From positions 180,389 through 244,388 of the forward strand of contig CAKOPN010000001.1 of NCBI GenBank assembly GCA_934100165.1: a DNA stretch of 64,000 nt, written 5' to 3'. Under the pieces are notes generated by a model. It searched no databases, was not told the origin of the DNA, and was given only the letters and a program-made list of their open reading frames with translations. The stretch is from an uncultured Bacilli bacterium (GTDB lineage: Bacteria > Bacillota_I > Bacilli_A > RF39 > UBA660). Each line of letters opens with the position of its first letter. Positions within the stretch are counted from its first letter, which is position 1. The position numbers were made by a program, and so were the translations under genes. Below, one piece after another: positions 3,803-41,595 of this stretch.

Positions 3803-5308
3803 CTATGATTTTTTTACTAGCGCTAATTTTTTACCTTCATCTTTTGTTTTATTGTCAAACTTTTCTAAAACAGGAGCATAATCTTCTCTTGAACTTAAAA
3901 TAGTTAATGCTCTACTTTTAATGGGTTCTAACTCTTTTGGATCTTTTTGAAACATCCTTGCAACCTCTTCATGACTGCGTTCAACCCCTCCAAAAATACC
4001 TGTTCTATATGCTAAATATTTAAACGTATCAAAACCACATGTACTATATAAAGATAAATACATTCCTTTATTTTCTTTATCTGCAAAAAGTGTGGCAATA
4101 TAGGCCTTTCTAACCTTTTTTAAAGCTTTTGCTTCTATCTGTCTAACTCTTTCGCGTGTACAACCAAGTTGTCTTCCGATTTCTTCTAGTGTTCTTATTC
4201 CCTTACCATCAAGGCCTAATCTTTCTGTAAGAATTAGATGTTGTCTACTGTCAAGAGTTTTTTTATCGTTTAACACCCCTATTAAAAAGTCTTTTTGCAT
4301 TCCACTTATAACACTATCATCTACATTATCATCGCAAACTAGTAAATCTTCAAGTGTCATAACATCATCTTCATCTATCTTTTTATTTATGCTAACAACA
4401 GGCATTGTAGTTTCACGATAAATTAAATAGTCATTTCTACTAATATCTAATTTTTCTAATATTTCACTTTCAGTAGGTCTTCTACCAAGTTCTAATTCAA
4501 GGCTACTTATCCCTCTAGCAATTCTGCCATTTTTAAGAACTCTATGTACAGGAACTCTAACACTTCTACCAGTATCTGCTATACCTCTTGACACTGCTTG
4601 TCTTATCCACCATGTAGCATATGTAGAAAATGAAGTATCACGAGAAAGATCAAATGTTTCAATAGAATGAAGTAAACCATTACTACCAAACTGAATTAAA
4701 TCATCATAGTCAACAGTCGAAGAAAGGAAACTAAAATACATATTAGCAGCTCTATAAACAAGTGGCATATTTACTTCTAAAAGCTTAGAGATAGTATCAC
4801 TATCACCAGATTCAATTCTACGCATAAGAGCAAGATTAGCTTCACCATACTTTGAAAAATCTATGTTGGAATAATCACCATAATCAGTGTTTTTAATTTT
4901 TTCAATGCAACCATAGAAAGGAACTAAAGAAGGATAATTTACTCTTTCTTCCTCATTTAAACTTAATAATAGTTTTTTAACTATTGGAAATCTTCCCATA
5001 TATGATTTCATCTTCTCATCTGATAATGGACCAACTATAGAAAAATAAGAATTCAAGATTCTAGCTCTTTTTTCGTTACTCATAGAAGAATTAGAAAAGA
5101 GAACTTTACACTCACGTGAGAAATATAAATACTCATTTTTTGAACATTCACTTTCTATTTGGCTTTTAATAATTGATTTTACTTTTGCTATAACAAGTTT
5201 TGGATCTTTTTCTTTTAACATAACTTTTTCTACGGTAGTTCTTGCATTGCCAATGCCATAACAATTACACATATCAATAAGTTTTTCTCTTAATTTCTCA
5301 TTACTCAT
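3803..5308 (-). CDS. Sigma-70 family factor, SigA-like regions 2 to 4 with long N- and C-terminal extensions
   Basis: Region 2 reads DYDDLIQFGSNGLL...[29 protein letters not shown]. Region 4.2 reads [27 protein letters not shown]. The roughly 200-aa N-terminal domain is unrelated to region 1.1. The C-terminal extension carries a second region-4-like motif YLAYRTGIFGG..SHEEVARMF. Confidence 0.7.
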   Translation of the reverse strand: MSNEKLREKLIDMCNCYGIGNARTTVEKVMLKEKDPKLVIAKVKSIIKSQIESECSKNEYLYFSRECKVLFSNSSMSNEKRARILNSYFSIVGPLSDEKMKSYMGRFPIVKKLLLSLNEEERVNYPSLVPFYGCIEKIKNTDYGDYSNIDFSKYGEANLALMRRIESGDSDTISKLLEVNMPLVYRAANMYFSFLSSTVDYDDLIQFGSNGLLHSIETFDLSRDTSFSTYATWWIRQAVSRGIADTGRSVRVPVHRVLKNGRIARGISSLELELGRRPTESEILEKLDISRNDYLIYRETTMPVVSINKKIDEDDVMTLEDLLVCDDNVDDSVISGMQKDFLIGVLNDKKTLDSRQHLILTERLGLDGKGIRTLEEIGRQLGCTRERVRQIEAKALKKVRKAYIATLFADKENKGMYLSLYSTCGFDTFKYLAYRTGIFGGVERSHEEVARMFQKDPKELEPIKSRALTILSSREDYAPVLEKFDNKTKDEGKKLALVKKS

Positions 5309-5323
5309 TTTTTCACTTCTTTC

Positions 5324-6934
5324 TTACACTACTTTTCTAAAGCAAGATGCTGGTAGTTTTACTACTTTTAACTTTGTTTTCTTATCTTTATTTCCTGCTT
5401 CATTTCTATGTTTATTCTCCCACTCAGAAGAATCATAAATAAATAAAAGCGGATCATATAATTTATCATTTTTAAGTTTTTTTAAGACTTTTTGTTCCAA
5501 TTTCTTAGCGCCTCTAATATTTTTTAAAGCTTCTTCTTGAGATAGTCTTCTCTTATTAAATAACCCTGTTCTGCAAGCCAAATAATCAAATTGCGAATCT
5601 TCTGATGAATGCAAAAATGAAATATATGCTCTTCGTATATCTGGCCTTAACTCACTATCCTTTAAATTTAATTCTATTAAAACTGTTTTAATCTTTTGAA
5701 TAGCTTTACTTTGTATTTGACGAATACGTTCATGGGAACATGAAAATGATTTTGCTACTTCACTTAATGTAGCAGGTCTTCCGGCAGTAAGCCCTAATCT
5801 TTCTTTTAATATAAATCTTTCATTTTCATTAAGCATCAAAGAAGAATCTATCATATTCGTAATATATTCGCTTTCCATTTTTGAAAATACTTCTTCATCT
5901 ACTAATTTATTATCTATTAAACTAAAATCTGCAAGGGTATTAGTTTGTCTTTCTCCATTAACATTTTTATCAACACTAGTTATACCAAGCATAATCTCAC
6001 AGTAGATTAAATAATCTTTTCTACTCATTTTTAAAAATTTTAGTATTTCTTCCTCAGATGGAAAATGTCCGAGTTCTTTTTCAAGAGCTTCTATTTCTCT
6101 TTTTGTTTTTTTAGCAGCTTCTATTCTATGTACTGGCACTCTAACATTCCTTCCAGTATCATCAATACCTCTTTCAATAGATTGTTTTATCCATAATGTT
6201 GCATACGTAGAGAAAGACTTACCTTTACTTAAATCAAAACATTCTATTGCACGAAGAAGTCCTTCATTTCCTAATTGGATTAAATCATCAAAATCTAAAG
6301 ATGAAGAATTCTTTACATTATAATGAGAATGTGCAGCTCTATTAACTAAACCTTTGTTGAAAAATAATAATTTTTCTATTGCTTGACTATTACCAGATTC
6401 CATCATGTGCATAAGTTGGTCGTTTATTTTAGTGATATTTTCTGTCACATCAATATTATTTATTTCATCTTCATTATTTGGGGTATAACTGAGAAAAGAA
6501 ACAAGTGCAGGATACTTTTCAAAAGAGTTAGAATCACTAGAACCATATTGTTTACTAACAAAATCTTTAACTCTAGGAAATCTTCCTTGAATTGATAAAT
6601 AATCTTCACGAGAAAGTGGCCCAACCGTTTCAAAAAAATCATTTATTATTTTTAGTTTCTTAGCATCATCATAATATGGATTAGTAAAAAGATTCCTATA
6701 AACTCTAGAAAAATACAAGTTTTTATTAGATGAAAATTCTTTCCTCATCTCGGTTTTTAAAAGAGATTTAGCCTTCCTTAATGCATTTTCATAATATTCT
6801 TTAGAAGTACTACATTTAGCACTATTTGCATACGAAATAGAATCCGTAACAATTTTTTTGGAAGCTAAAATACCATAACTTTCACAAAGAAGTACTAACC
6901 TTTTCTTTATCTCCTCATTTGTCACTTTGATCAC
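5324..6934 (-). CDS. Sigma-70 family factor, paralog of 3803..5308 with similar extensions
   Basis: Region 2 reads DFDDLIQLGNEGLL...FSTYATLWIKQSIERGIDDTGRNVRVPVH. Region 4.2 reads TLSEVAKSFSCSHERIRQIQSKAIQKIK. The start is ambiguous between the GTG at 6934 and a GTG at about 6925 that has a GGGGTGA ribosome-binding site. Confidence 0.7.
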   Translation of the reverse strand: MIKVTNEEIKKRLVLLCESYGILASKKIVTDSISYANSAKCSTSKEYYENALRKAKSLLKTEMRKEFSSNKNLYFSRVYRNLFTNPYYDDAKKLKIINDFFETVGPLSREDYLSIQGRFPRVKDFVSKQYGSSDSNSFEKYPALVSFLSYTPNNEDEINNIDVTENITKINDQLMHMMESGNSQAIEKLLFFNKGLVNRAAHSHYNVKNSSSLDFDDLIQLGNEGLLRAIECFDLSKGKSFSTYATLWIKQSIERGIDDTGRNVRVPVHRIEAAKKTKREIEALEKELGHFPSEEEILKFLKMSRKDYLIYCEIMLGITSVDKNVNGERQTNTLADFSLIDNKLVDEEVFSKMESEYITNMIDSSLMLNENERFILKERLGLTAGRPATLSEVAKSFSCSHERIRQIQSKAIQKIKTVLIELNLKDSELRPDIRRAYISFLHSSEDSQFDYLACRTGLFNKRRLSQEEALKNIRGAKKLEQKVLKKLKNDKLYDPLLFIYDSSEWENKHRNEAGNKDKKTKLKVVKLPASCFRKVV

Positions 6935-6986: not shown

Positions 6987-7625
6987 TTATTTAAATAAAG
7001 TTCTTAAAAGCTCATTTTCAGTTATATATTTTCCCTTAAAATAAAACAAGTGTATTTTATCTCTATACATTTCTTTGACATTTTTTATGATTTTCCTTTT
7101 CTTATAATTAAGATTATAAAGATATCTTTCTAGTAAAAACTTATTAAAATATTCTTTTCGTCTATTAAACTCATCAAAGATTTTAAATACAAGCAAAAAA
7201 AGGACAAATAAGAAAAAATAAGAACTAAAAAAATATACGGACAAGCAAAATATGAAAGTATAAACCGCAAAAGAAATAAATATTGTTATATTGTAACTTT
7301 TTCGATATGAAAATATGTAACACAGTAATATGTCAAGAAGTCTTCCACCATCAAGCGGATATATTGGTAAAAGATTAAAAATAAGTAAAAAATAATGGAA
7401 ATCATTAATATTTTTAATTTCTAAAAAAGTTAATAAGTAAAAATAAACAACCTGAAAAATTGGGCCCATAAGCATTATCAAGAGTTCTTCTTTTAACGGT
7501 TTATTTATAATAACGTCAAATTTAGTAATTCCACCAAGTGGATATATATAAATCTTATCAGTATTCCATTTATAATGTTTAGCCATAAGTAAATGTCCAA
7601 ATTCATGAACAATAATTAAAGACAT
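6987..7625 (-). CDS. M50 site-2 protease, SpoIVFB-like, without a CBS domain
   Basis: HEFGH zinc motif in a transmembrane helix and an LDGG motif. It lies directly after a SpoIVFA-like gene, downstream of mreD as in Bacillus. The N-terminus looks truncated (see findings). Confidence 0.6.
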   Translation of the reverse strand: MSLIIVHEFGHLLMAKHYKWNTDKIYIYPLGGITKFDVIINKPLKEELLIMLMGPIFQVVYFYLLTFLEIKNINDFHYFLLIFNLLPIYPLDGGRLLDILLCYIFSYRKSYNITIFISFAVYTFIFCLSVYFFSSYFFLFVLFLLVFKIFDEFNRRKEYFNKFLLERYLYNLNYKKRKIIKNVKEMYRDKIHLFYFKGKYITENELLRTLFK

Positions 7626-7707
7626 ATATATAATTATTTTTTTAAAATTTGCAGTAAAAAAAGTTATAAAAAGGAAAAGATAAGTAAATGGTGATATATA
7701 AATATTT

Positions 7708-8331
7708 TTATATAAACTCTTTATAATCTACATACTTCCCATCTTCTTTAAAAACTAAGTAAATATGCTTATCTTTTGCTTCTCCTACAAAGCTTCCTTT
7801 AGTTAAATGATCATAAAGTTTAATATCACCAACATTTATATTGCAATACCATATATCTACACCATTTTCTCCTTGTACTATAACTGTATTACCATAATCT
7901 GTTTTGTCACCAATAAATATTACTACACCATTTTCTAAAAGTGGTACTAAATAATTTGCATTAACTTCCAAAGAAACTCCATCTTTGTATGCACTACTTT
8001 TACTATATATTAACTTTTCACTAAAAACACGTTCTTCTCCTGGCACTATATCAATAGGAAAAATACTACCGAATTTAGAATTATACCATTTGGTAATTGT
8101 TGCAAAAGAAATAGTATTGTCATAGACTTCTTTATAAACATTTTTTTTAAAATTATCATTTACTTTGGCACCTATAAGAAAAGAAAGAAAAAGAATAAAA
8201 GAAATTAGTATTTTACTAACAAATACTTTAGCAAATGTCATGGAACTATTTATTTTCTTATTGTTAAAATTGTTATTTTTCTTTTTCATTAAATATTCCT
8301 CAATATTCCTATATTCATCCATATAAATCAC
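7708..8331 (-). CDS. SpoIVFA-like membrane protein with a degenerate LytM/M23 domain
   Basis: N-terminal transmembrane helix and a C-terminal M23-like fold that lacks the HxH catalytic motif. It sits upstream of the S2P gene. Confidence 0.5.
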   Translation of the reverse strand: MIYMDEYRNIEEYLMKKKNNNFNNKKINSSMTFAKVFVSKILISFILFLSFLIGAKVNDNFKKNVYKEVYDNTISFATITKWYNSKFGSIFPIDIVPGEERVFSEKLIYSKSSAYKDGVSLEVNANYLVPLLENGVVIFIGDKTDYGNTVIVQGENGVDIWYCNINVGDIKLYDHLTKGSFVGEAKDKHIYLVFKEDGKYVDYKEFI

Positions 8332-8356
8332 CCTCTAATAATAAATATTAGACTTA

Positions 8357-8818
8357 TTATTTAATAGAACCAAAGCTAAAAGAAAATTTGCTTTTATTAA
8401 AATTAAAAGCAAAATATATGATTGCAAAACTTACACTAGGTAAAATATTATTTAATATTTGAAATATTAAAAATGTAATTTTAAAATCTATGAATCCAAA
8501 AAGAAAGAGAAAAAGATAATAACATAAATAATATATCAAATAAAAGGAAAGAAAAAACAAAAGGAAATTTCCTATATCTCCTGTAAATTTTTTTCTTAGT
8601 ATATAGAAAAAGCAAAATATTATAATAAAAAGGAGAAAAGTAATTGAAATATTATTATTTATAATTACTCCAAAAAGAAACAAGAATAAATAAAATAAAA
8701 GGTCGAGTTTTTTGTGAAAATACAAATATGAAATAAGATAAGAAATAGAAAAAAATGAACATAAAAACTTGGTATTTAAAAGAACAAAATCCAAGATTAC
8801 AATAAATATTCCCATCAT
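8357..8818 (-). CDS. mreD: Rod shape-determining protein MreD (putative)
   Basis: Small, very hydrophobic polytopic protein immediately downstream of mreC. Confidence 0.45.
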   Translation of the reverse strand: MMGIFIVILDFVLLNTKFLCSFFSISYLISYLYFHKKLDLLFYLFLFLFGVIINNNISITFLLFIIIFCFFYILRKKFTGDIGNFLLFFLSFYLIYYLCYYLFLFLFGFIDFKITFLIFQILNNILPSVSFAIIYFAFNFNKSKFSFSFGSIK

Positions 8819-9549
8819 GAAGCATTCCTCTTAAGAACTGCTACAAATCTTAAATTGTTAATATCAGATGCAAGAAAAACTGTTGCAACATTACCTGTGT
8901 CATAATAATCTTTTTCTATTTCAATTATAGTGCCAATAATTATTCCACTTGGAAATTTTGTTGTTAATCCACTAGTTACAATTTTATCCCCTACTTTAAC
9001 CTTTGAATCTTTGTCTATTCCTTCTATGATCATTTTATTATTAGAAACCGTTAATATTTTATTTAAAATCTCCTCTCCTACTACTTTAACTGATATATTA
9101 TTGTATTTACTACTGTTAGTAATAAGTTTGACAACAGAAGTATAAAAAGTGGTCTTCTCTACAGTACCAACAAGACCGTTGTAATCGACAACAGCCATAC
9201 CTTCTCTAATTCCATCTTTTTCTCCTTTATTTATAGTTATTTCATCTAGAAAAAAATCATTTTTTCTTTCTATTACAGCAGCATAAACATAATCATAATC
9301 AGTAAGAGAAAAATCTATATTCAAAAGTTTCTTCATACTCTCATTTTCTTTTTCAACTTCATCTTTAAGTGTAACAGTGAAATTTTTAGAAGGAATATAA
9401 TCAAAAGAGAAAAAAAATAAATCACGGAAATATTTTTCAATATATATATGATTATTAACAGTTAAATATGAAAGTACTGTTAAAACAATTACAATAACTA
9501 TAAGTAAGTTTTTCTTTTTAATTTTCTTTCTACTTTTCACGTTAATCAC
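8815..9549 (-). CDS. mreC: Rod shape-determining protein MreC
   Basis: N-terminal transmembrane helix and coiled coil. The C-terminal beta domain reads GDKIVTSGLTTKFPSGIIIGTI. Confidence 0.75.
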   Translation of the reverse strand: MINVKSRKKIKKKNLLIVIVIVLTVLSYLTVNNHIYIEKYFRDLFFFSFDYIPSKNFTVTLKDEVEKENESMKKLLNIDFSLTDYDYVYAAVIERKNDFFLDEITINKGEKDGIREGMAVVDYNGLVGTVEKTTFYTSVVKLITNSSKYNNISVKVVGEEILNKILTVSNNKMIIEGIDKDSKVKVGDKIVTSGLTTKFPSGIIIGTIIEIEKDYYDTGNVATVFLASDINNLRFVAVLKRNAS

Positions 9550-10232
9550 CCATTTATAATTTGCCCATTATCTTTAAAACTATAATAATTATTATTGCCA
9601 ATTATTAAGTGATCAATTACAGGGATTTTATTGATTTTTCCAATATTAACAAGTGCATCTGTTAAAACAAGATCATCGTTTGAAGGTTTTATATCTCCAC
9701 TTGGATGATTATGAACACAAACAATATTACTAGCAGAATAAAGATATGCATATTTAAAAACTTCACGTGGGTGAACAATACTTTTGTTAACTGTGCCAAT
9801 AAATAAAAGTTTCTTACCAACCATATGCTGTCTATTATCAAAATAAAAACAGTAAAATAATTCTTGCTTTTTATCATTGAAAAGATTTCTAACGTTTTCA
9901 TAAATCATTTCTGAATTTATAAAAGAAGTTTTCTTAACAAAATCATCTTTTAAAAAAATCCTTTTCCCAAGTTCAACAGAAGAAAGAATAACAAATGCCT
10001 TTGCCTTACCTATTCCTCTTATAGAAGTAAGTTTATTCATTGTTACTTCTCTTAAATCAGAAATTTTAGAAAATTCTTTTAAAATGAAAAAAGAAAGATC
10101 TTTTACAGAAGTATTTTTAGTACCTGATCCCAAAAGTATTGACAAAAGTTCTTCATTAGATAAAGATTCTACTCCATACATTTCTAATCTTTCCCTTGGC
10201 CTTTCAAATTCAGGTATATCTTTTATTTTCAT
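9546..10232 (-). CDS. radC: RadC-like JAB-domain protein (UPF0758)
   Basis: HNHPSG JAMM-like motif and an N-terminal helix-hairpin-helix region. Confidence 0.8.
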   Translation of the reverse strand: MKIKDIPEFERPRERLEMYGVESLSNEELLSILLGSGTKNTSVKDLSFFILKEFSKISDLREVTMNKLTSIRGIGKAKAFVILSSVELGKRIFLKDDFVKKTSFINSEMIYENVRNLFNDKKQELFYCFYFDNRQHMVGKKLLFIGTVNKSIVHPREVFKYAYLYSASNIVCVHNHPSGDIKPSNDDLVLTDALVNIGKINKIPVIDHLIIGNNNYYSFKDNGQIING

Positions 10233-20131: not shown

Positions 20132-21784
20132 CTATTTTAAAACATAAGGATCACTGCTAATTCCAGTTCCACCTGCTATAACAGCACTATTTGTGATACT
20201 AATAACTGGTCTAACATAAGAAGTATCTTTTATATTTTTGCTTAAAATATTACCAGATGTATCAACAACATTTAATGTTTCAGTACCACTATTAGAAAGT
20301 GTCCAGTATTCTTGGTTACTACCAATCGTATACATATCACCTATCTTAGGTATACCAACTTTAATATTTAAAATATTGCTGTTGTCACAAGTAAAACTAT
20401 ATTTTGTTGTAGGAGTAACTAAGCTTACACAAAAGTCACCTACTACAAGTTTTTTACTATCTTCCTCAGGAAGATTTCCATACCACTCTGTATTTAAAAG
20501 TTTACCTATTGTAGTGCCTTGGTTATAAGTCGGTGTAATTATTTCATCAAACACTGTATTTAAGCTTGGAATAACATTTACTTTAACCAATCTAGTATAA
20601 TTAGTAGTAGTATTTATTATTCTATAAAGTTCTCCAGCAAAATTAACATATTCACCAGCATACCTTGTATTAAGAAGTGTACCAGTAAGAGCAGTACTTT
20701 CTCCTACTAATCTATAAGGATTATCTTTTGTACCTTCACCACCATAAGCATATGTAATGTTTGGATTAAGCACTATTGAAGGTCTTATTCCAACATATGT
20801 ATTTACACTAGCACTTACAGGGTTATTATTAGATATATACCAGTTATCGCTTTCACTAGATTTTGAAATTAACCACCAAGAATAATCACTATTTAAGAAT
20901 TCTTTTGATTTATCATATTCATAGTAATTAAGTAAACCAACTCTAGACTGCGTAACATTAGAAGTACCTGGCATACCAGAATTTGTAACTACACTATAGT
21001 TCCAATTAGCATTAAGTAAATAATAATCCGGATTTCTAAGTGTCTTTAAAAATGTATTATTAAGCCAAATATCAACATTACTATTATTAAAGTTTGATGA
21101 AGAATCATTAAATGGTAAAACAGTTACTACTTCATCTGATATTAGTTTAACTGTTTTATTATTATCGTTATAACTAACAATTCTCCACATTTTACCTGAA
21201 TAATAAACATAATTGTCAGGAGCATTTCCAGTTATATATCTATCAGCATTGCTATCAGCACCTGTTGCACTCAAACCAGAAATTTTGTCATATAAAACAT
21301 TTTCACGTTCTGCAACATATTTATCACAAGATTCTGTATTTTCTTTTAATTTTGAATATTCAACTTTATTTCTCTTCGCACACACAAGACTAGATTCAAC
21401 AGTTTTCTTACCATTAACATTTCTAATACGAACATCAATATAATTTTTGCTACTATCAATATCTTCAAAATTAGTAAGGTCATAAGAAGAGGCACCATTA
21501 CAAGTTACACCATCTTCATCAAACTCTTTTAAGTATTTATTCTTTACTAAAAATTCTACACTTGTGTCAATACACCCACTAGCATTTACTCCTCCTAAAT
21601 CATCTTTTCTACTATCAGCGTATAAAAGTGCAGCTTTTTCAATTAAATTATAATATTCATCATACTTTTTATTCTTGTTTTCCTTCATTAGTCTTGTTGT
21701 GGCAGGAAGTACAATAAGAAGTAAAAGTCCCATTATAACAATAACTGCAATAAGCTCAATTAAAGTAAATCCTTTCTTTTTCAT
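20132..21784 (-). CDS. Large type IV pilin-like protein with a class III (prepilin) signal
   Basis: MKKKGFTLIELIAVIVIMG prepilin leader and hydrophobic helix. About 550 aa. An extended -10 promoter is upstream. Confidence 0.6.
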   Translation of the reverse strand: MKKKGFTLIELIAVIVIMGLLLLIVLPATTRLMKENKNKKYDEYYNLIEKAALLYADSRKDDLGGVNASGCIDTSVEFLVKNKYLKEFDEDGVTCNGASSYDLTNFEDIDSSKNYIDVRIRNVNGKKTVESSLVCAKRNKVEYSKLKENTESCDKYVAERENVLYDKISGLSATGADSNADRYITGNAPDNYVYYSGKMWRIVSYNDNNKTVKLISDEVVTVLPFNDSSSNFNNSNVDIWLNNTFLKTLRNPDYYLLNANWNYSVVTNSGMPGTSNVTQSRVGLLNYYEYDKSKEFLNSDYSWWLISKSSESDNWYISNNNPVSASVNTYVGIRPSIVLNPNITYAYGGEGTKDNPYRLVGESTALTGTLLNTRYAGEYVNFAGELYRIINTTTNYTRLVKVNVIPSLNTVFDEIITPTYNQGTTIGKLLNTEWYGNLPEEDSKKLVVGDFCVSLVTPTTKYSFTCDNSNILNIKVGIPKIGDMYTIGSNQEYWTLSNSGTETLNVVDTSGNILSKNIKDTSYVRPVISITNSAVIAGGTGISSDPYVLK

Positions 21785-21807
21785 AGACACCATCCTATTC
21801 TACAAAA

Positions 21808-21867: not shown

Positions 21868-22095
21868 GTGATTACAATGTTCAAACCGCAAAAACACAAT
21901 GCATTTTGTAGATGTGATATTTGTAAAGCAAAAAGAAGAGGAAATGTTTTATATCTTGTCTTTTTAATTTTCCTACTTTTAATTATTTTCTATCAGTCTT
22001 TAATACTAATTTTTATTACAACAAAAATAAATGCTATACTTCTTTTTCTAGAATTTATAGCATTCTTATTTATCATTTTTATGGTCGTAATTTAA
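21868..22095 (+). CDS. Putative small membrane protein with an N-terminal Cys cluster
   Basis: CRCDICKAK motif followed by a hydrophobic tail, with a GGTGA ribosome-binding site. It could be an AT-rich artefact and overlaps the 3-prime end of the convergent gene. Confidence 0.25.
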   Translation: MITMFKPQKHNAFCRCDICKAKRRGNVLYLVFLIFLLLIIFYQSLILIFITTKINAILLFLEFIAFLFIIFMVVI

Positions 22096-22962
22096 AGCAA
22101 ATTTCACTACTTTTGAGTGATATAGATAAAGCTTATAAACTTCTTTTGTATTATTAAGTTCATCATCTGTAAATTTAATTTCTAAAGGCATAAGAAGGAT
22201 TGCAAGTAAAAGATACATTTCATGTGGCATAAGTTGATATTTAGCAGCATATATTCTGAAAAATGTTTCAAATTCCACTACTTCAAAATTATTTCTAAAA
22301 AATGATGCAAGATCATTAACTGGAGAATCAAAGTTAGCTCTATTCCAGCTTATAAGGTATGAATTATCTCCCACTAAAATATGTGATAAATCTAAATTAT
22401 TGTGATTAAGGCTCATTCTTTTACTAGTCTTTTCTTTTGCTATTGTATACCACAGTTCAATAAAGTGTTTGCTTAAATCTATTGTATTAAATATTTGTGC
22501 AATATTTCTTATTAATAAATATTCACTAGGAGAAAGAAATTTATTTTCATCATACATATAGCAAAGGTTATCGTAATAATTTCTAATTTGTAAAAGTTTA
22601 TCTACATGGTCTTCATAAAAGCATTTCACCTCATCTAGGGAAATGCTTTTATAAAATGTTGTTTTATTATGTAACATACTAAGTATGTACATCATTTCTG
22701 TAGCTTTATCTTCATCTTGCATAGGTATTTCATTTATATAAGGTGTCATCTCATAAGGTTCATCATCTTTATCAAGCCTATCAAGTACGTTAAAAAACTG
22801 TCTTTTTTTTAAATATTCGTAAACATTTTTTATATTAGAATTTTCTTTTGGTTTAAAGCAGTATGTACCTTCACAAGTTGTTATTACATGTACCTTTCCT
22901 ATCTTTTTATATTTTTTAATGGTAAGATTATACTCTTTAGCAATCTCTTTTACACTATTCAT
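22066..22962 (-). CDS. CotS/YutH-like kinase-fold protein (spore coat associated family)
   Basis: HNNLDLSHILVGDN kinase-like catalytic loop. Confidence 0.5.
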   Translation of the reverse strand: MNSVKEIAKEYNLTIKKYKKIGKVHVITTCEGTYCFKPKENSNIKNVYEYLKKRQFFNVLDRLDKDDEPYEMTPYINEIPMQDEDKATEMMYILSMLHNKTTFYKSISLDEVKCFYEDHVDKLLQIRNYYDNLCYMYDENKFLSPSEYLLIRNIAQIFNTIDLSKHFIELWYTIAKEKTSKRMSLNHNNLDLSHILVGDNSYLISWNRANFDSPVNDLASFFRNNFEVVEFETFFRIYAAKYQLMPHEMYLLLAILLMPLEIKFTDDELNNTKEVYKLYLYHSKVVKFALNYDHKNDK

Positions 22963-23827
22963 CTTTACTACTTGGTATTATTATCTTACTACCAATTTTC
23001 ATATCACTTAAATCATTATATTCTTCTAGTTGTTCACGTGTTGTATTATATTTAGTCATAATGTTTTCTATAGAATCATTTTCTCTTACTATGTATATAC
23101 TGTAAGTCGAATATGTTTCTGTCGATGAGTCAAATGATGAAAATAATGATGCTCCATCTGTTTTCATATCATCACTTTCATTTTTTACTAAAATGGTTTT
23201 CTCTTTCTTAATGTTTTCAGTATCAACACTGTTTACTGCAATACTTTGAACTTCTTTCTCATTTTCTACACTTTCTACGTCATCCAAAGTCATTTTCTCC
23301 TCGCTATCTCTATTTTCTTCACTAGCCTTTTCATCTTTTATGATAGCATCCGCCTTATCTGTGATTTCTTTTTCACTATGACTATCTAAATCATCAAGCT
23401 CTAACTTTTCCTTAGTGTCACTTTCCATAAATAAATCATCAAGAGTTACTAAATTATCTTCTTCTTTTTCCTTTTCATCTTCTTTTACTTCTTCCACTTT
23501 CTTAAGTTCAAGTTTATCAAGAAGTAAATCAATATTAACTCTCAAAATCTCTTCATCTACTACTTCGTATGTAAAATCATCGATATCAATAACTAAGTTT
23601 GTAAGATCATATTTATCATCCATAACAATGTCTACAGGTATTTTATAAGAAAAGTCATTTTCAAGTTGACTTGCTGCAGTCATTTTATAAGTTCCTGAGA
23701 CTATAAAGTCACCTTTAATGCTGTCACTTCCAGAAAGCATCAAAGTATGTTCTAAAGAAATAGATGTTATTTTATTTATCATTGTTTTAAATTCTATGTC
23801 CTTTGTAAAAGATACTATTTCATGCAT
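22955..23827 (-). CDS. SpoVID/SipL-like protein with an N-terminal domain, an acidic linker and a C-terminal LysM domain
   Basis: The C-terminal segment YSIYIVRENDSIENIMTKYNTT...IGSKIIIP is a LysM domain. There is a long Asp/Glu-rich middle region. Confidence 0.45.
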   Translation of the reverse strand: MHEIVSFTKDIEFKTMINKITSISLEHTLMLSGSDSIKGDFIVSGTYKMTAASQLENDFSYKIPVDIVMDDKYDLTNLVIDIDDFTYEVVDEEILRVNIDLLLDKLELKKVEEVKEDEKEKEEDNLVTLDDLFMESDTKEKLELDDLDSHSEKEITDKADAIIKDEKASEENRDSEEKMTLDDVESVENEKEVQSIAVNSVDTENIKKEKTILVKNESDDMKTDGASLFSSFDSSTETYSTYSIYIVRENDSIENIMTKYNTTREQLEEYNDLSDMKIGSKIIIPSSKDE

Positions 23828-23880
23828 AAAATCATTCCTTTCCTTTCTATTAGAATATATGTAAATTTAAGAAATTTATA

Positions 23881-23918: not shown

Positions 23919-24572
23919 TTTTATCTCTTCATTTATAACATGTCTTTTATTACTCAAACTACCTGGAATCATAGAAAGAATATTTTCTTTTTCATCCTTC
24001 AAATAAGTATAATATTTATAAAACATTCTATTTTTATTTTCTAACAAGCAAGGTCCAAAATAAAGCTCTTTATAAGAATAATTTTTATTGCCCTTAATAA
24101 ATTTCATAATTATATAATATTTGCCATCTTCAAGGACAATTGCTTCACTTTCAATAATAAATCCAAGTTTTGTTATTTTTTCTCTTACTTGGTAAAACTT
24201 ATTGTTGGAGGATATTACAAGTTTTTTTATATTCGAAAGTTTTTCTTTATTATCATTTAATATTTGTACAATAGTATCCATTCCCATACCCGATATTACT
24301 ATCGTATCAGTATCAGTAGAAAGTCTTTCTATTCCATTTGCTTGTTGCACTTTGATTTTATCTTGTAACGAATATTTTTTTATATTTTCTAAAGCTTTTT
24401 GAAGTGGTCCTTCATTTATATCTGAAGCAGTTACCACTAGTGTCTCATCATTTTGTAAAAGATATATATCTAAAAGTGCATGATCACATCCAACATCAAT
24501 AATACTTCTAGAAATCTTATCATCTAAAACAAAATCTGAAACTTTTTGTAATCTTTCACTTAGTTTAATCAA
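23892..24572 (-). CDS. trmK: tRNA (adenine22-N1)-methyltransferase TrmK (YqfN family)
   Basis: [18 protein letters not shown]-methyltransferase motif. It sits downstream of rpoD as in Bacillus. Confidence 0.7.
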
Positions 24573-25662
24573 TTAAGAAATCCTTTAATTTTCTAGAACG
24601 TGATGGATGTCTTAGTTTTCTTAAAGCTTTTGCTTCGATTTGACGTATTCTTTCTCTTGTTACACCAAATATTTGTCCAACTTCTTCAAGAGTTCTGCAT
24701 TGTCCATCATCAAGTCCAAATCTTAATCTTAAAACTTTTTCTTCCCTATCAGTTAATGTAAGTAATACATTTGTAAGTTCTTCTTTAAGCATTTCTACAG
24801 TAGCATACTCTTCTGGAGACATTGTTCTCTCATCTTTAAGGAAATCTCCTAAATGAGAATCATCTTCTTCACCTATTGGTGTTTCCAAAGATACTGGATC
24901 TTGAGATATTTTATATACTTCACGAACCTTATCTACTGTTATATTTAACTTTTTAGCAATTTCTTCTTCTGTTGGTTCACGGTTCAACTCTTGAGTAAGT
25001 TGTCTTTGAACACGAGCAAGTTTGTTTATTGTTTCTACCATATGAACTGGTACTCTTATTGTTCTTGCTTGGTCTGCAATTGCACGTGTTATAGCTTGTC
25101 TAATCCACCATGTAGCATAAGTTGAGAACTTATATCCTTTTGTAGGATCAAATTTGTCAACCGCTTTCATAAGTCCAATGTTTCCTTCTTGAATTAAATC
25201 AAGGAAAAGCATACCACGGCCAACATATCTTTTTGCAATACTTACAACAAGTCTTAAGTTAGACTCAGCAAGCATCTTTTTAGCATATTCATCGCCTTCT
25301 TCAGCAAGACGAGCATATTCAAATTCCTCATCTGTTGTAAGAAGGTTAATTCTACCTATTTCCTTTAAATACATTCTAACTGGATCATTTATTTTGATAT
25401 CTTTAGACATAGTCAAATCTTCTACAACAAGACCTGATGGGTCTTCTGCATCATTATTGTTATCTGCAGTTTCACTAATTATTTCTATTCCATTTTCTAC
25501 AAGAGCATTATATAGATCATCAAGTGTATCACTATCTACTTCAAGTCCTTTAAGTTCACCAGCTATCTCTTCATATGTTACATAACCTTTTTTCTTACCA
25601 GACTCTATTAGTTTATTTTTTCTCTCTTCGATAGTCTTAATTTCTTCTAACATAATATTCAC
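24565..25662 (-). CDS. rpoD: RNA polymerase primary sigma factor SigA/RpoD
   Basis: Regions 1.2 to 4.2 are present, including the IRVPVHMVE motif and the 4.2 HTH. Confidence 0.95.
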
Positions 25663-27386
25663 TCCCCGATTCTTAATAATCTTATCTTTTCAGCAATTTT
25701 AGCTTTTTCCATTTCATCAGGCTCTTTTCTCATAATTTCATTTAGATTTTTTATTTCTTCTCTAACATTGTAGTCACTGATTACTTTAACGTATTCATTT
25801 ATTGTTTCGTTGCTGATTTCGTCGCCTAAACCTAAGTTTAAAACTTTTTCAAAGACTATTAACAATTCTTTTTTATCATTTAAATAAGTATAGAAATCAG
25901 CTATAACTATATCACCATATGTATGGTAATAATAACTAATTTCCCCAGCTAAAGCACGCATATCTTTATCGAGAAAATAAAGCTTTTTGCTATCATAAAC
26001 CTTTATTACTAAAGGATTTATAAGCATAAAATATATAAATTCTAGTGATGCTCTAGTATATTTATCAAGTTTGGAATCTTTTTTTTCTATCAAAAATGCA
26101 TTGTCGGAAGCCTGTCCCTTTTCTAAAAGAAGAGTATACTCATTTAATTTTTTTTCTAGTGTATTATAACTCAAATTAACTTCATTTGCAAGTTTTTTTA
26201 ATATTATTTCTTGCCTTATTTCATCTTTTATGTTACTGGTTTCTTTAAGTACCCTATTTACATAGTTGGAAAGTTCAACATCACTTGCAAAATTTACGCC
26301 TTCTTTTAATCTATTTATTCTAAAATCACTATAATTAACAGCACCTTCTATCATTGCTAAAAACTTATCTTTACCATTTTTAAGTATATATGTATCAGGG
26401 TCATCATCATTAGTAAGTGCTATTACTTTAACATTAAGTCCTGACTTCTCTAAAAGTTCCCCATTATGAAGTGCCGCATCAAGCCCTGGTTTATCACCAT
26501 CAAGGCACAAATAAACATTTAAAGAAAGTTTCTTCAAAAGAGAAATTTGATCCTCTGTTAATGCTGTTCCCATAAGTGCTACTGTATTTTTAACACCTAT
26601 CGTGCTAGCACGTATAACGTCCATAAAGCCTTCCATGACAATAACATACTTTTCAATTCTAACAAACTCTTTTGAAGCATTATAATGATACAAACACGTA
26701 CCTTTCCTAAATATAGGCGTTTCCTTAGTGTTTAAATACTTACTAAGCTTACTATCAGTATATATTCTTCCACTAAATCCAACCGTTCTACCATTTCTAT
26801 CATCAAGTGGGAAAATAATTCTGTTAATAAAAACATCTATATCCCCATTAGCAAGGCCAATATCATTGAGTGTATTTACATCATATTTTTTTTCTTTCAA
26901 AAACTTTTGTAATTTATCTTTAGATTCAGTAGCAAGACCAATTCCAAATTCTTTTATAGCATCACTATCTATTCCTCTTTTACTAAGATACTCTCTTGCT
27001 TCCTTACCACTATCAGTAGTAAGCATAAGCTGATAATACTTCCCAGCAAGTTCATATATATCATAATACTTTGTATATTTATTACTAACTATACTTGAAT
27101 CACTTATCTTTACACCTGCTTTATCTCCAAGTGCTTTAAGTGCTTCTCTAAATGAAACATTTTCAATTTGTTCATAAAAGTTAAAGACATTACCACTATT
27201 ATGACAACTCCAACATGTATAAGTCTGTCTTCTAGGATCAACACTCATAGAAGGATTTTTATCATTATGAAAAGGACAAATTCCCCAGTAATATTGCCCT
27301 TTTTTAGTAAGTGAAACATAGTTACTTACAAGATCAACGATATCAATTTTGCTTCTAATTTCATTTATAACATTTTGATTATCCAT
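25659..27386 (-). CDS. dnaG: DNA primase DnaG
   Basis: Zinc-ribbon [10 protein letters not shown]...C..C motif plus a TOPRIM domain. Confidence 0.9.
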
Positions 27387-27627: not shown

Positions 27628-28572
27628 TTATTCAACATTTTTTACACTTTTTTTGCAAATTTCTTTTTCTCCCACTTTAAATACGACTTCTTGCACATTA
27701 TCATAACTTGAAAAAACTGAATAACTTATCGAGTAAACCACCTCTTCTAAAATACTATCCTTATCCATAAATATACTATTATTAAAGTTAAGAATCATTG
27801 AATCATTCTTAATTTCATAGCTAATAAGCTCTATATTTTTATCAAGTAAACTTATTAAATTAGGCTCAAATATATAATTACTACTTAATTCATCTATAAT
27901 AATTTTTACCTTTTCTCTTTTATCATTAACATATTTAGTAATTGGCACATAATAAGTTTTATCATCTATATTAGAAATATAATATATAACTATTTTAGAT
28001 ATATCAATAAAGTTCTTAAGTTCTACACGTTTGTTAATACCATATTCCTTTGTAATTATATCAGGTATATTTTTCGGAAATAGTCTTGATATATTATCCC
28101 CTTCCACATATATAACTACTCCGTTTACTCCATCTAATTCTAGTATAGAAAAACTAATTGATTCCACTATTTTCTCTATTTCTTGATGATCTATATCTAA
28201 AAATCCTTTAGAAAAATTTAAATATGCAATATTCTCATCAACATTAACATCAATTAACTCAATATTTTTAGGGATAAGTCCATAAAGCCCATCTGGAACA
28301 GTTGAATCTCCACCAATTGTAAGTTTATTGATAATATCTTTTATAGTAGTATTCAAATCTTCATTTTTTACTTTAAAATTAACTTTTGTAAGTTGTGAAG
28401 ATTCATTTACCAAGTAAATACTTATATCCCTAGGTTTTGAATATTTTACAATGTTTCGACTTTTATTAGATGTTATATTAGAGGGAATAAGATATATTGA
28501 TAATAATATAAGAAGAACAAATGTAGTAATAAATATTTTTCTTTTAGCTTTTCTCTTTAACACAAAGATCAC
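27628..28572 (-). CDS. GerM-like protein (two GerMN-like domains)
   Basis: N-terminal anchor and two repeats with the GerMN-like pattern ...VPDGLYGLIPKNIELIDVNVDENIAYLNFS... Confidence 0.45.
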   Translation of the reverse strand: MIFVLKRKAKRKIFITTFVLLILLSIYLIPSNITSNKSRNIVKYSKPRDISIYLVNESSQLTKVNFKVKNEDLNTTIKDIINKLTIGGDSTVPDGLYGLIPKNIELIDVNVDENIAYLNFSKGFLDIDHQEIEKIVESISFSILELDGVNGVVIYVEGDNISRLFPKNIPDIITKEYGINKRVELKNFIDISKIVIYYISNIDDKTYYVPITKYVNDKREKVKIIIDELSSNYIFEPNLISLLDKNIELISYEIKNDSMILNFNNSIFMDKDSILEEVVYSISYSVFSSYDNVQEVVFKVGEKEICKKSVKNVE

Positions 28573-28878: not shown

Positions 28879-29385
28879 TTACTTAAAGTTCACTGTTACA
28901 TAAACTTTTTCTTTGTATTCTTCTTGTACTGTTCGCATTATATTGTTAGCAAGTTTAACATCATGATTTTTAGAAATAGCAATTACATTTATTTGGTTAT
29001 TATCTATTTCTACGAATGAATCGACGTTAAGTTTGCTTTTTATTTTATTTTCTAGTTTTTCTTCTTCACCTAAAACAGTGTTTAAGTAAGTTAGTTTGTC
29101 ATAGGCATTATTTTTCTCTTCCGTAGTAGCAGTACTACTAGTTAAAATGCTTTGTAAATCCGTCTTTTCTAATCTTCTTTCTTCCTCTTTGTCTACTCTA
29201 AGTGATACTAGTATTTCACTTTCTTCTTGTTCCAAATTAACTTTTTCTTCATTATTTTTATTATCATTATTTTTTTCTAAGTCTGTTTTCAAAAGTAATT
29301 CATTTGGCATAGTTACATAATAAACACTTAGTACTAGTATTAGTGAAAAAAGTGTTAAAAACCATAAATTCTGCTTATTTATCAT
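28879..29385 (-). CDS. SpoIIIAH-like membrane-anchored protein (tentative)
   Basis: N-terminal transmembrane helix, a charged linker, and a C-terminal ...NVIAISKNHDVKLANNIMRTVQEEY pattern that resembles the SpoIIIAH/YscJ-like C-terminus. Confidence 0.35.
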   Translation of the reverse strand: MINKQNLWFLTLFSLILVLSVYYVTMPNELLLKTDLEKNNDNKNNEEKVNLEQEESEILVSLRVDKEEERRLEKTDLQSILTSSTATTEEKNNAYDKLTYLNTVLGEEEKLENKIKSKLNVDSFVEIDNNQINVIAISKNHDVKLANNIMRTVQEEYKEKVYVTVNFK

Positions 29386-29443
29386 AAATCCTTCCTCTTT
29401 TCTAATACATTATATTAAAAGAGAAAAAAGATATGCTAAAAAG

Positions 29444-31488: not shown

Positions 31489-33249
31489 TTAATATCTTTG
31501 ATTCATATCTACAAATTCACTAGGTTCATAAACTGTACCAGTAAACCATACTTCTCCACTATCTTTATCTCTAATAATAAACATATATGGCTTATCAAAA
31601 GTTAAATCTATCTTTTCAACAGGAACTTCAAATAAATGATCATAGAAACCTCCATTTATATTTCCAGCTCCTCCTAACACAGTAGCGGCAGAAGCTTTTA
31701 TTCCTTCATTAGAAAATTCAATATTTGCTTTATGTCTAACTAATAAAATAAATTCACCTCTGGAAGAAACTATGCTAGATAAATCAGCTTTCGTCTGATC
31801 AAAAATATCTTCTACACCAAGTTTCTTTAAATCTTCTTTTAAATTAAGATTATATTCGAACTTAAATACAGGAATAGATGCATTTATTTCTATTACTTTG
31901 CCTTGATCAAAGCTTTCTGGTTTTATAGTTTTAAGTCCAGAAATAACATTGTTTAAAGTTTTTGCATCAACATTATTTATATACTCTTTTAGACTAACAT
32001 TTGTAGGCATTATACCAACATATTGTAGTGTTGTACCATCATAAGTCTTTAAATCTTTTGCAAAAGCTTTTACAGAGTCATCTGTATATACTAAGAAATC
32101 CGTTGATGATGAATACTTCCCGTAATTAGCATCAAGTTCGTCAATAAAATTATTAACAAACTTAGGAATATCAAGCTCATTCTCAGATTTTGCATATTCA
32201 TAGTTACGAGGATCTTCATTTAACCAGTTAGTATATTCTGTTTCTATCATTTTATAGATGTTATCTCTTCCTAGTTCTTTTACAATGTTATAGTTATTTA
32301 TTGTAGCACTTACATCTAAAACACCGGCATCATACTTATTATTAAATTTAACTTTTTCCATTGGTGTACCATCAGTTACAGAAACATAATTGTTATATTT
32401 TTCATGAGCAAAATAAAATTCCCAATAATAATCTCCTTTTGTACCATCTGGTTGAATTCTTTTAACCCATTCCATATCAATACCTAATGCATTAACAAGT
32501 GCAAAATCAAGATCTTTCAAATCAGCATCACTTACAACATTATCAATTAAGTTAAGAGTTTTATCCTTAACCCAAGCGTTAATTGTTTTAGCGTTTTCAA
32601 AAGAATCATATACTACATCAGCATCGTATTTCCCTTTTAACTTGTTAACATAACCAGCTTGTACCTCATCTTTGAAATCATTTCTTATAAACATAGCATT
32701 AGCAAGTGATATATTCTTACTGTTTACATATTTTTTTGATATATAATCGCCAACGATTGCATTGATTTGACCATATGAATCACCAGAAGCACCTTCTTTA
32801 AGCATTTGTAATGCATATTTAATTGAAAGTGGGCTGTATACTTTATTTATCTCTTCATTTTCAAGTTTTAAAAATTGAAGATCGAAATTTTCAAGCGAAT
32901 TACCACTCATTTTATACGGTGAAGTATATTTTTCATTTTCACTAACAATAGGATCTTTTTTTGGCTCCTTTTTATTAAGATTATTTAGGAAAAACACTTC
33001 TCCCACTATGCATGCAGCTGATATTATGACAAAGCAAATCCAAAATGTTATTTTCTTTTTGTTTCCCTCTTTTTTTGTCATATCTTTTTTCTCATTATCA
33101 TCTTGTTCTTTTACTATAACTTCTTCTTTATTATTATTTTGCACATCTAAAACCGTTTTTTCTGCATTATTTTCTTGTTCTTTTGCTATAGCATTTTCTG
33201 CATTATTTTCTTGTTCTTTCACAGTATCTTTTTTCTCACTATCTTCCAT
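31489..33249 (-). CDS. Serpin-family protease inhibitor with an N-terminal repeat region and a transmembrane anchor
   Basis: Serpin motifs YSPLSIKYALQMLKEGASGDS, a reactive-centre-loop-like GIKASAATVLGGAG, and the C-terminal signature FDKPYMFIIRD...WFTGTV. The N-terminus carries KEQENNAE repeats and a transmembrane helix. Confidence 0.7.
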   Translation of the reverse strand: MEDSEKKDTVKEQENNAENAIAKEQENNAEKTVLDVQNNNKEEVIVKEQDDNEKKDMTKKEGNKKKITFWICFVIISAACIVGEVFFLNNLNKKEPKKDPIVSENEKYTSPYKMSGNSLENFDLQFLKLENEEINKVYSPLSIKYALQMLKEGASGDSYGQINAIVGDYISKKYVNSKNISLANAMFIRNDFKDEVQAGYVNKLKGKYDADVVYDSFENAKTINAWVKDKTLNLIDNVVSDADLKDLDFALVNALGIDMEWVKRIQPDGTKGDYYWEFYFAHEKYNNYVSVTDGTPMEKVKFNNKYDAGVLDVSATINNYNIVKELGRDNIYKMIETEYTNWLNEDPRNYEYAKSENELDIPKFVNNFIDELDANYGKYSSSTDFLVYTDDSVKAFAKDLKTYDGTTLQYVGIMPTNVSLKEYINNVDAKTLNNVISGLKTIKPESFDQGKVIEINASIPVFKFEYNLNLKEDLKKLGVEDIFDQTKADLSSIVSSRGEFILLVRHKANIEFSNEGIKASAATVLGGAGNINGGFYDHLFEVPVEKIDLTFDKPYMFIIRDKDSGEVWFTGTVYEPSEFVDMNQRY

Positions 33250-33349
33250 ACTCTCTCTACCTTTCTACCTATATTAAAGCATACTTTTTTTTCGTAATCA
33301 ATTTAAAAAGAAAAAAGAAAAAAAAGAGGTGTAAAGAAAGTGAAAACTA

Positions 33350-40116: not shown

Positions 40117-40785
40117 TTATTTACAATCAGAAACGCTTAAAACTTTAATTGCAGAAATAACTTTTCCACTTTCATTAGCAGTTACTGTTTCAACAAGACC
40201 TTTTACACTTTCAGGTTTATTCTTTGGTTCTATCCATTGTTCTCCACTAGATCCTTCTGCTGGAGCAGCAACTAAATAGTCCTTAGAAGTAGCACCATCA
40301 TATAAATCTTTTAATGCTGTATATTGAGTAAGTTCATTGTTTCCAGAAACAACTAAGTCTCCAAGATTATCTGCTAAATCTTTTTGGCTTACAAAGTTAA
40401 TTCCTTGGTTAGAACCATCTTTTGCTACGAAATAATAGTTATAATTTTTACCGTTGTAAGTAACACCTACATAAGCATAATCCCATGTATCACTAAATGG
40501 TGATCTTCCGCCTTTTTCAACAGCTACACAAGATTTTCCATCTTCATGTCCAACTGGTATTAGATATAAAGTATTCACATCGAATAATTGTACTTTAGTA
40601 GCTTGGTTAACCATGTTTCTAGTATCATCGATATATCCAGAAGCAGATTGAGCAAACGCTGATTTTCTTGAGTTAGAAATATATTGTGTAACACTTGGAA
40701 TAGCAATAATCATTAAAACACCTAAGATAATGATAACTGCAAGTAATTCAATTAAAGTAAAACCTTTTTTATTTGTTTTTTTCAT
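40117..40785 (-). CDS. Type IV pilin-like protein (class III signal)
   Basis: KKGFTLIELLAVIIILGVLMIIAIPSV prepilin leader. Confidence 0.65.
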   Translation of the reverse strand: MKKTNKKGFTLIELLAVIIILGVLMIIAIPSVTQYISNSRKSAFAQSASGYIDDTRNMVNQATKVQLFDVNTLYLIPVGHEDGKSCVAVEKGGRSPFSDTWDYAYVGVTYNGKNYNYYFVAKDGSNQGINFVSQKDLADNLGDLVVSGNNELTQYTALKDLYDGATSKDYLVAAPAEGSSGEQWIEPKNKPESVKGLVETVTANESGKVISAIKVLSVSDCK

Positions 40786-40937
40786 TATAAATTATTTCCT
40801 CTCTTCCTTTATTTTATAAATAAAGTTTATAATAAGGAAAATAAAAAGTCAATATATTAAGAAATAATTAGACATTTTTTAACATATTTATACAATTATT
40901 TTAAAAAAAATTGATCTATACGATCAATTTATTATTT

Positions 40938-41513: not shown

Positions 41514-41595
41514 ATCACCATACCTTAAAATAATTATAATATTATTAAGATAAGTTTTCAAGGAAAAAAAAGATGCTTCATTTATAAGCATCGAT

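Follow-up and report, generated by a model that had tools for sequence, protein, structure and literature searches.

A SpoIVFB-like site-2 protease gene without a canonical start codon at its overlap with a SpoIVFA-like gene in uncultured gut Bacilli

The closest described relatives of the gene pair considered here are the spoIVF operons of Bacillus, in which the gene for the site-2 protease (S2P) SpoIVFB overlaps that of its partner SpoIVFA. SpoIVFB, an intramembrane metalloprotease of the CBS-containing group of M50 peptidases (B. subtilis structures PDB 8VJL and 8VJM), processes pro-sigma-K in sporulation and is kept inactive by BofA and SpoIVFA. In SpoIVFB, the first transmembrane segment (TM1) lines one side of the TM1/TM6 substrate cleft (PMC11486902, PMC9042235). 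In Bacillus sp. ZZV12-4809 (locus L018, positions 5992-5999), spoIVFB starts at a TTG codon 8 nt inside spoIVFA (TTGAATAA), and in Bacillus spp. this TTG stands two codons after an in-frame TGA; thus, a non-ATG start within the upstream gene already exists in a Bacillus spoIVF operon. The non-canonical start codons AUU and AUA are used in E. coli by infC and pcnB. Conserved AUU/AUA starts have been described in Bacillota for infC, cvfC1, ccpN and citZ (S. aureus/B. subtilis), with about 10% of the AUG output in S. aureus reporters, and the documented cases of S. aureus (cvfC1, ccpN, infC) have strong, extended Shine-Dalgarno sequences (SDs) (PMC13009471). Here we describe a spoIVF-like gene pair in a 64,000-nt stretch of contig CAKOPN010000001.1 (assembly GCA_934100165.1, an uncultured Bacilli bacterium; the whole stretch is called the window), in which the gene of an S2P of the M50 peptidase family overlaps the gene of a degenerate M23/LytM protein (below, the M23 gene).

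The protease gene is intact and comprises 246 codons, and the "cryptic" stretch of 34 codons upstream of its first in-frame ATG encodes the N-terminus and TM1 of the protein. Translation probably begins at one of two isoleucine codons, ATT 7725-7727 or ATA 7722-7724, with or without coupling to the translation of the M23 gene. The elements on which the argument relies are the following:

6987-7727, minus strand: full-length SpoIVFB-like S2P (M50) gene as proposed, 246 codons plus the stop codon TAA 6987-6989; stop-to-stop frame
7725-7727, minus strand: proposed start ATT, the first codon past the in-frame TAG
7722-7724, minus strand: alternative start ATA, the codon next after ATT
7728-7730, minus strand: in-frame TAG closing the S2P frame upstream, made by the M23 codons GTA-GAT (Val-Asp)
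7626-7727, minus strand: the 34 "cryptic" codons, IIKSLYKNIYISPFTYLFLFITFFTANFKKIIIY; N-terminus, TM1 and beginning of TM2
7708-7727, minus strand: 20-nt overlap of the M23 and S2P genes, dual coding (M23 DYKEFI and stop; S2P IIKSLY)
7735-7740, minus strand: GGGAAG, a weak SD-like patch 7 nt 5' of the ATT, formed by the M23 codons GAT-GGG-AAG
7623-7625, minus strand: internal ATG (Met35), the start chosen by gene callers
7593-7607, minus strand: HEFGH zinc-binding/catalytic motif, residues 41-45 counted from the ATT
7344-7376, minus strand: NLLPIYPLDGG motif in TM4, with the third zinc ligand Asp
7708-8322, minus strand: SpoIVFA-like degenerate M23/LytM protein, 204 aa from ATG 8322; N-terminal region and one TM

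The protease and its partner

The S2P gene (Peptidase_M50 in Pfam, 64.4 bits) in its ATG-initiated version spans 6987-7625 (minus strand) and reads MSLIIVHEFGH, so that the first His of the HExxH motif is residue 7, as the original prediction had pointed out. The further observations made there on the region 5' of this ATG also hold: the S2P frame is open for 34 further codons (7626-7727) up to the TAG at 7728-7730, none of these codons is ATG, GTG or TTG, and the stretch overlaps, in another frame, the 3' end of the M23 gene (stop codon TAA 7708-7710; M23 frame +2 relative to the S2P frame). There is no G residue in the 25 nt 5' of the internal ATG 7625, and therefore no SD for it.

When the extended 246-aa translation was used as a database query, 2,692 homologues were retrieved. 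Gene calls for the most similar of them (53-97% identity) begin at the internal Met and give 199-217 aa, and many of those at 40-50% identity are called at 240-255 aa. The upstream stretch matches the N-termini of these long forms residue by residue (alignment A1; e.g. MIIKNIFKKIQI and MFKSIYIHPLTY, as well as MIIKNIFKKIQIDSFFYLF of P0026, MIIKSIYKKIQIH of P0084 and MFKSIYIHPLTYLLIIIAMITANFKKIIIYMSL of P0003). The profile of the S2P alignment identified B. subtilis SpoIVFB (PDB 8VJL, E=1.8e-46), with the match starting at SpoIVFB residue 13, in TM1, and the hhalign comparison with SpoIVFB of Bacillus sp. gave a probability of 99.9% over 245 columns. The coding status of the stretch was examined in its single-coding part (codons 9-38) in 26 distinct relatives of the same spacing. 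The S2P frame contains no stop codon in any of the 26, while the other two frames average 4.15 and 1.15. The ratio of nonsynonymous to synonymous differences (pN/pS) is 0.70 in the S2P frame, compared to 0.92 and 1.54 in the others and 0.52 in the catalytic core; these ratios are only supportive, because synonymous sites are near saturation (pS about 0.6). Met35 is restricted to the closest clade, and F, L, T, V or I occupy its position elsewhere. The suggestion that the gene might have decayed at its N-terminus can thus be dismissed, since the stretch is conserved as protein, free of stops in all 26 relatives and aligned to TM1 of SpoIVFB; a comparison of orthologues had been named as a way to overturn the idea of a hidden N-terminus, and the orthologues were found to keep TM1. 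Residues 1-34 belong, with little doubt, to the S2P protein, and the tryptic peptide NIYISPFTYLFLFITFFTANFK is their predicted marker.

The AlphaFold2 model that includes the stretch (pLDDT 90.9, pTM 0.85) exhibits six TMs, with a helix at residues 13-24 preceding the HExxH helix at residues 28-51, and Foldseek superimposes it on SpoIVFB (8vjl_A) with a TM-score (TMq) of 0.86 over 269 columns. The six-TM core is complete only when the 34 upstream codons are included. H41, E42 and H45 are invariant in alignment A1 and are aligned to HELGH of SpoIVFB, in TM2; the columns N118-G127 are invariant as well, and NLLPIYPLDGG is aligned to NLLPIWPLDGG of SpoIVFB. The interdomain linker FNKFLLERY is also conserved in the profile alignment to SpoIVFB. 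That the C-terminal CBS domain is missing, as claimed initially, is true only in the sense that no Pfam CBS match was found in the S2P at E<=0.01: the final ~45 residues can be matched to the CBS region of Bacillus SpoIVFB, with deletions of 9, 2 and 3 residues and an end about 13 residues short, and are modelled by AlphaFold2 as a small beta-beta-beta-alpha module. The C-terminus is probably a shortened CBS-like remnant, and the domain would then not be absent.

The ORF of the partner, as listed (7708-8331), matches Peptidase_M23 in Pfam with 35.5 bits (cut-off 28.7). Its GTG codon at 8331 falls within the SD GAGGGTGA (8328-8335), ATG 8322 is located 5 bases after this SD and the M23 proteins of relatives are called at 204 aa; because of the position of the GTG and the length of the relatives, ATG 8322 is the more likely start. 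The catalytic positions of the M23 domain are substituted, with YKDGVS in place of HxGxD, WYCNIN in place of xYxHL and KHIYL in place of PHLHF; compared with the active M23 peptidase 6JMX, HSGTD is changed to KDGVS, YYHLS to WYCNI and PHLHF to KHIYL, and a single His is retained. Judging from its sequence, the M23 protein is a single-pass membrane protein with a predicted catalytically dead M23/LytM domain. BLASTP detected its similarity to SpoIVFA of Bacillus sp. (E=3e-17 over 198 aa). Together, the 8VJL profile, Foldseek, hhalign and BLASTP results agree with the initial assignment of the two genes as SpoIVFA-like and SpoIVFB-like and support the pair as orthologues of Bacillus spoIVFA-spoIVFB.

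The start region across relatives

DNA of the relatives was obtained by exact-protein look-ups and by protein-pattern scans of genome and metagenome collections, and the junctions were counted among the matches listed; the closest clade (53-59% identity), with few members in the pattern scans, was fetched individually. There are 78 distinct S2P junctions, 27 of which lack ATG, GTG and TTG from the in-frame stop to TM1, and all 27 come from uncultured gut Bacilli (labelled as uncultured Bacilli, Tenericutes or Mycoplasmatota). The in-frame stop is TAG at 16 of them and TAA at 11. Codon 1 after the stop is ATT in 22/27 and codon 2 is ATA or ATC in the other five, while the first His of HExxH is found, with few exceptions, 123 nt past the stop. 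In the gut-Bacilli loci of this arrangement, the S2P-frame stop is followed by the M23 stop at a distance of 20-29 nt. Seven of the 27 junctions are without any canonical start ahead of HExxH, hence a canonical start there would delete the catalytic motif.

The remaining relatives indicate where initiation is to be sought. L167 and L168 are called from a TTG that occupies exactly the position of the window's TAG (TTG-ATT-ATA-AAG vs TAG-ATT-ATA-AAG), with ATT-GAT or CTT-GAT in the M23 frame at this site as compared to GTA-GAT in the window. L022, L023, L092 and L093 have an ATG two or three codons further on, L172 has a new ATG at codon 5, and L007 and L116 start at an ATG four codons upstream, with a sense codon replacing the stop, and begin with M-x-x-x-L-[IT]-I-K. 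At the place where relatives begin, the window offers only two start-like codons, ATT 7725-7727 and ATA 7722-7724, both for Ile, and initiation there would give M-I-K-S-L-Y-K, which matches M-I-I-K-N-I-F of the canonical relatives. An Ile codon is always present where relatives place ATG or TTG, which supports the non-canonical start, possibly with coupling, that was among the options offered in the original prediction. The GGGAAG patch pairs with the anti-SD at -4.9 kcal/mol in the window; over 31 loci the mean of this pairing is -4.7 kcal/mol, with 5-8 nt between its end and the Ile codon, and it is strong only in L015 (-9.3), L001 (-7.4) and L114 (-7.1). The patch is consistent with a start, without being decisive.

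The most likely origin and mode of action of the arrangement are as follows. The ancestral start would have been a TTG or ATG at or beside the start position of the window. The M23 codon that precedes a conserved Asp/Asn would have exchanged T for A in its third position (xTT to xTA), a substitution that is silent for Leu or Val and favoured by AT bias; the TTG of the S2P gene would thereby have become TAG, and a later Asp-to-Asn change in M23 would turn TAG into TAA. Initiation would then be left to the next near-cognate codon: the initiator tRNA would read ATT 7725-7727, or the adjacent ATA, right after the in-frame TAG. As the M23 stop codon follows 17 nt downstream of the ATT, help may come from ribosomes that complete the M23 gene, either by melting structure or by reinitiating. 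The expected outcome is synthesis of the protease at a low level relative to its partner. A stricter version, which we consider rather unlikely, would have the S2P made only by ribosomes that have just left the spoIVFA-like gene or a 4-codon mini-ORF and reinitiate on AUU with little or no SD, with no contribution from free 30S initiation. If this is true, the output of the protease would be tied at a low fixed ratio to that of its own inhibitor, and the arrangement would have been born of a third-position substitution in an overlapping gene and then kept across many species.

Several points weigh against the predicted initiation at the Ile codons. The SD-like patch is weak (-4.9 kcal/mol), unlike the strong, extended SDs of the S. 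aureus AUU/AUA starts, and at -53 and -65 the M23 coding sequence incidentally produces SD-like motifs that are as strong or stronger; since G-rich Gly-Glu codons of M23 create these motifs, SD strength is only weakly informative here. Moreover, ATT-ATA is forced by GAT-TAT-AAA of the M23 gene in an AT-rich genome, so that its conservation alone is no sign of selection for a start. Finally, the in-frame internal ATG ahead of HExxH in the window leaves room for a shorter product; 24 of 26 junctions also retain an in-frame ATG before the stop, usually by four codons, from which readthrough, or reinitiation after a mini-ORF, would be conceivable.

The first of these alternatives, in which only a short protein of 212 aa (HExxH at residue 7) is made from ATG 7625 and the upstream stretch is an untranslated, decayed relic, draws on the presence of this ATG in the window and in the closest clade and on its use by all gene callers. 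It is improbable, because the frame of the stretch is uninterrupted and its protein sequence conserved in all 26 diverged loci, Met35 is not kept beyond the closest clade, ATG 7625 has no SD before it, and TM1 corresponds to one side of the TM1/TM6 substrate cleft of SpoIVFB (PMC11486902, PMC9042235). The seven junctions without a canonical start ahead of HExxH also argue against it. In such genomes, public calls begin either inside the motif (P0047 and P0066, which start with "MGH..." at the TTG that encodes Leu of HELGH) or past it (199-aa calls). We give a slim chance to a start at the in-frame ATG 7740-7742 (MGSM) followed by readthrough of the TAG, or, as a variant, to a 4-codon mini-ORF that ends at the TAG, with reinitiation on the ATT. 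Two relatives, L116 and L007, do start from exactly this ATG, with a sense codon replacing the stop, and the mini-ORF ATG is retained in 24/26 junctions. However, this ATG is a by-product of M23 Asp-Gly (GAT-GGx) and is lost, uncompensated, when the Asp changes (L001, L015, L089); it lies itself within the G-rich patch and has no SD before it; and the stop is TAA in 11/27 and TAG in 16/27 junctions, so that no single suppressor fits. In addition, TAG ends ordinary genes and the window contains no tRNA-CUA.

A programmed +1 frameshift in the 20-nt overlap, leading to a SpoIVFA-SpoIVFB fusion protein, is geometrically possible in every locus, since the M23 frame is +2 and the M23 stop is always downstream of the S2P-frame stop, and in 21/26 overlaps the sequence TAT-AAA-R would allow tRNA-Lys to re-pair on AAG or AAA. 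Nevertheless, the frameshifting raised in the original prediction is disfavoured, and we hold it to be very unlikely. AAA is missing from 5/26 overlaps (TAT-CAA or TAT-ACA), hence there is no universal slippery codon; the 26 loci show neither a stall signal, such as a rare or stop codon in the A site, nor a prfB-type SD 3 nt upstream; the M23 stop is preceded by a variable sense codon (ATA, ATT, ATC, CTT, TCA, AAG, AAA); and relatives as well as Bacillus initiate independently at ATG or TTG within the same overlap. A fusion would also join an extracytoplasmic M23 domain to the N-terminus of a six-TM S2P with a cytoplasmic C-terminal domain, an N-terminus which, as inferred from the published SpoIVFA/SpoIVFB topology, must be cytoplasmic. 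There is practically no probability left for a sequencing or assembly error (an indel, suspected near 7626..7727, or a base error) hiding a normal start, since independent assemblies from different samples and sources share the identical junction: it is unchanged in L084 (Logan ERR7738585), L173 (NCBI GCA_964329865.1) and L174 (ENA), and the same in L087, at 92% identity, while the architecture recurs in 27 distinct sequences. No correction of the sequence is needed, and initiation at the ATT or the adjacent ATA remains the reading that we prefer.

Further candidates were rejected. Genome-wide recoding of TAG is one of them. TAG ends 16 and TGA 13 of the 92 long ORFs, and no tRNA with a CUA anticodon was found in the 64 kb. 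Pairs of ORFs split by a single TAG in one frame (an HD-domain protein and valyl-tRNA synthetase; a 162-aa ORF and cysteine desulfurase) proved to be separate genes with an ATG of their own. Codes 4 and 25 are rejected because TGA ends mreC and radC. Another candidate concerned the S2P of the window's species, which is called at 212 or 199 aa depending on the assembly (P0121, P0123 and P0130 vs P0001 and P0122). The 199-aa call begins with MAKHYKW and has no HExxH, but the DNA upstream still encodes MSLIIVHEFGH (L173 and L174, 6001-6600); as this DNA keeps the internal ATG, the difference reflects only the choice of the gene caller and not a loss of the ATG.

Genomic neighborhood

Over the whole 64 kb (28.9% G+C), long ORFs with database matches are almost all carried by the minus strand. 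The gene pair is preceded by three genes, and genes of sporulation type are found at four other places:

9546-10232, minus strand: radC (Pfam RadC, 132.8 bits; NF000642, 218 bits)
8815-9549, minus strand: mreC (Pfam MreC, 119.7 bits; TIGR00219, 117 bits)
8357-8818, minus strand: mreD-like polytopic membrane protein, assigned by position
28879-29409, 27628-28572, 22066-22977 and 22955-23866, minus strand: sporulation-type genes

The predicted gene order radC-mreC-mreD-M23-M50 is thus borne out by Pfam and NCBIfam. For mreD, the Pfam search of the window ORF 8357-8818 gave no match, and the assignment is provided by the gene in the same position of the relative L168, which matches PF04093 (MreD). 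The proposed mirror image of B. subtilis radC-mreBCD-minCD-spoIVFA-spoIVFB is valid for the order, but not for the full content, as neither mreB nor minCD is present in the radC-mreC-mreD-M23-S2P cluster of the window. The sporulation-type genes comprise a SpoIIIAH-like gene (PF12685, 53 bits), a Germane/GerM-like gene (88.6 bits) and adjoining ysxE-like and spoVID-like genes with sub-threshold matches; because of them, the organism probably forms endospores or descends from a recent ancestor that did so.

The S2P gene is directly followed by two RpoD-like sigma-70 paralogues of 536 and 501 aa (5324-6934 and 3803-5308, minus strand), both of which bear an N-terminal extension of about 170 aa; the bona fide rpoD (374 aa, 601 bits) is located at 24565-25689. 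The second paralogue of L173 comes in two pieces of 177 and 321 aa, and in the more distant relatives L081 and L085 the spot of the sigma paralogues is occupied by a Mur ligase. Elsewhere in the window, a 591-aa protein (31489-33264, minus strand) carries at its C-terminus a serpin domain (PF00079, 149.7 bits), a family uncommon in bacteria. Several proteins, one of them of 555 aa, possess prepilin-type N-terminal methylation motifs (20132-21799, 40117-40791 and 40938-41615, minus strand), which suggests a type IV pilus or a competence pseudopilus system.

Consequences and comparison with known systems

Due to the lack of a canonical start, gene finders truncate the S2P across this group of uncultured gut Bacilli. 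The public calls of the group are 199-217 aa long and lack TM1, and some of them start inside or after HExxH; analyses of topology, structure or presence/absence that are built on such calls are therefore biased. A survey of RF39, RFN20 and ML615J-28 genomes inferred the absence of spoIVFB in some families from annotation based on KEGG Orthology (KO) (PMC10868615), and truncated calls could contribute to the KO-inferred absence. With respect to overlapping genes, the locus illustrates a plausible path of start loss, by a synonymous change in the upstream gene while the downstream protein stays under selection. No publication dealing with the start codon of spoIVFB in these lineages was found in a literature search.

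Both the system of this locus (the spoIVF pair) and its irregularity (a probable near-cognate start in an overlapping gene) are of kinds described before. The new elements are this particular case and the wide occurrence of the proposed conserved ATT/ATA-type S2P start across many uncultured gut Bacilli, traceable to a one-base change. Among the characterized S2Ps, that of Methanocaldococcus jannaschii (3B4R) exhibits the same six-TM core (Foldseek TMq 0.60, E=3e-7; profile E=2.3e-19), but it is far more distant than SpoIVFB, has native tandem CBS domains and no M23 partner. The resemblance to SpoIVFB is much closer: HExxH is located in TM2 at residues 41-45 here and at residues 43-47 (H43/E44) in B. 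subtilis, and the NLLPIxPLDGG motif, the six-TM core and the FLLERY interdomain linker are common to both, whereas the CBS domain appears to be cut to about 45 residues and the protein is 246 aa long as compared to 288. At the level of the operon, both systems pair the protease with a single-TM partner that has a degenerate LytM domain and is encoded by an overlapping upstream gene, and both are placed after mreC/mreD; SpoIIIAH-like and GerM-like sporulation genes are found nearby. The differences are the cluster without minCD and mreB, the start codon outside the set ATG, GTG and TTG, and the overlap of 20 nt instead of the 8 nt observed in Bacillus.

As far as translation is concerned, the gene would extend the short Bacillota list of conserved AUU-initiated genes by a candidate whose SD is weak. 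It differs from the described AUU/AUA-start genes in the weakness of its SD-like patch, for which coupling to upstream translation may substitute, and in the position of its proposed start, which is contained in the preceding gene and follows an in-frame stop immediately. It resembles them in that an Ile codon occupies, throughout the lineage, the place where relatives have a canonical start, and in the low output that is to be expected from it.

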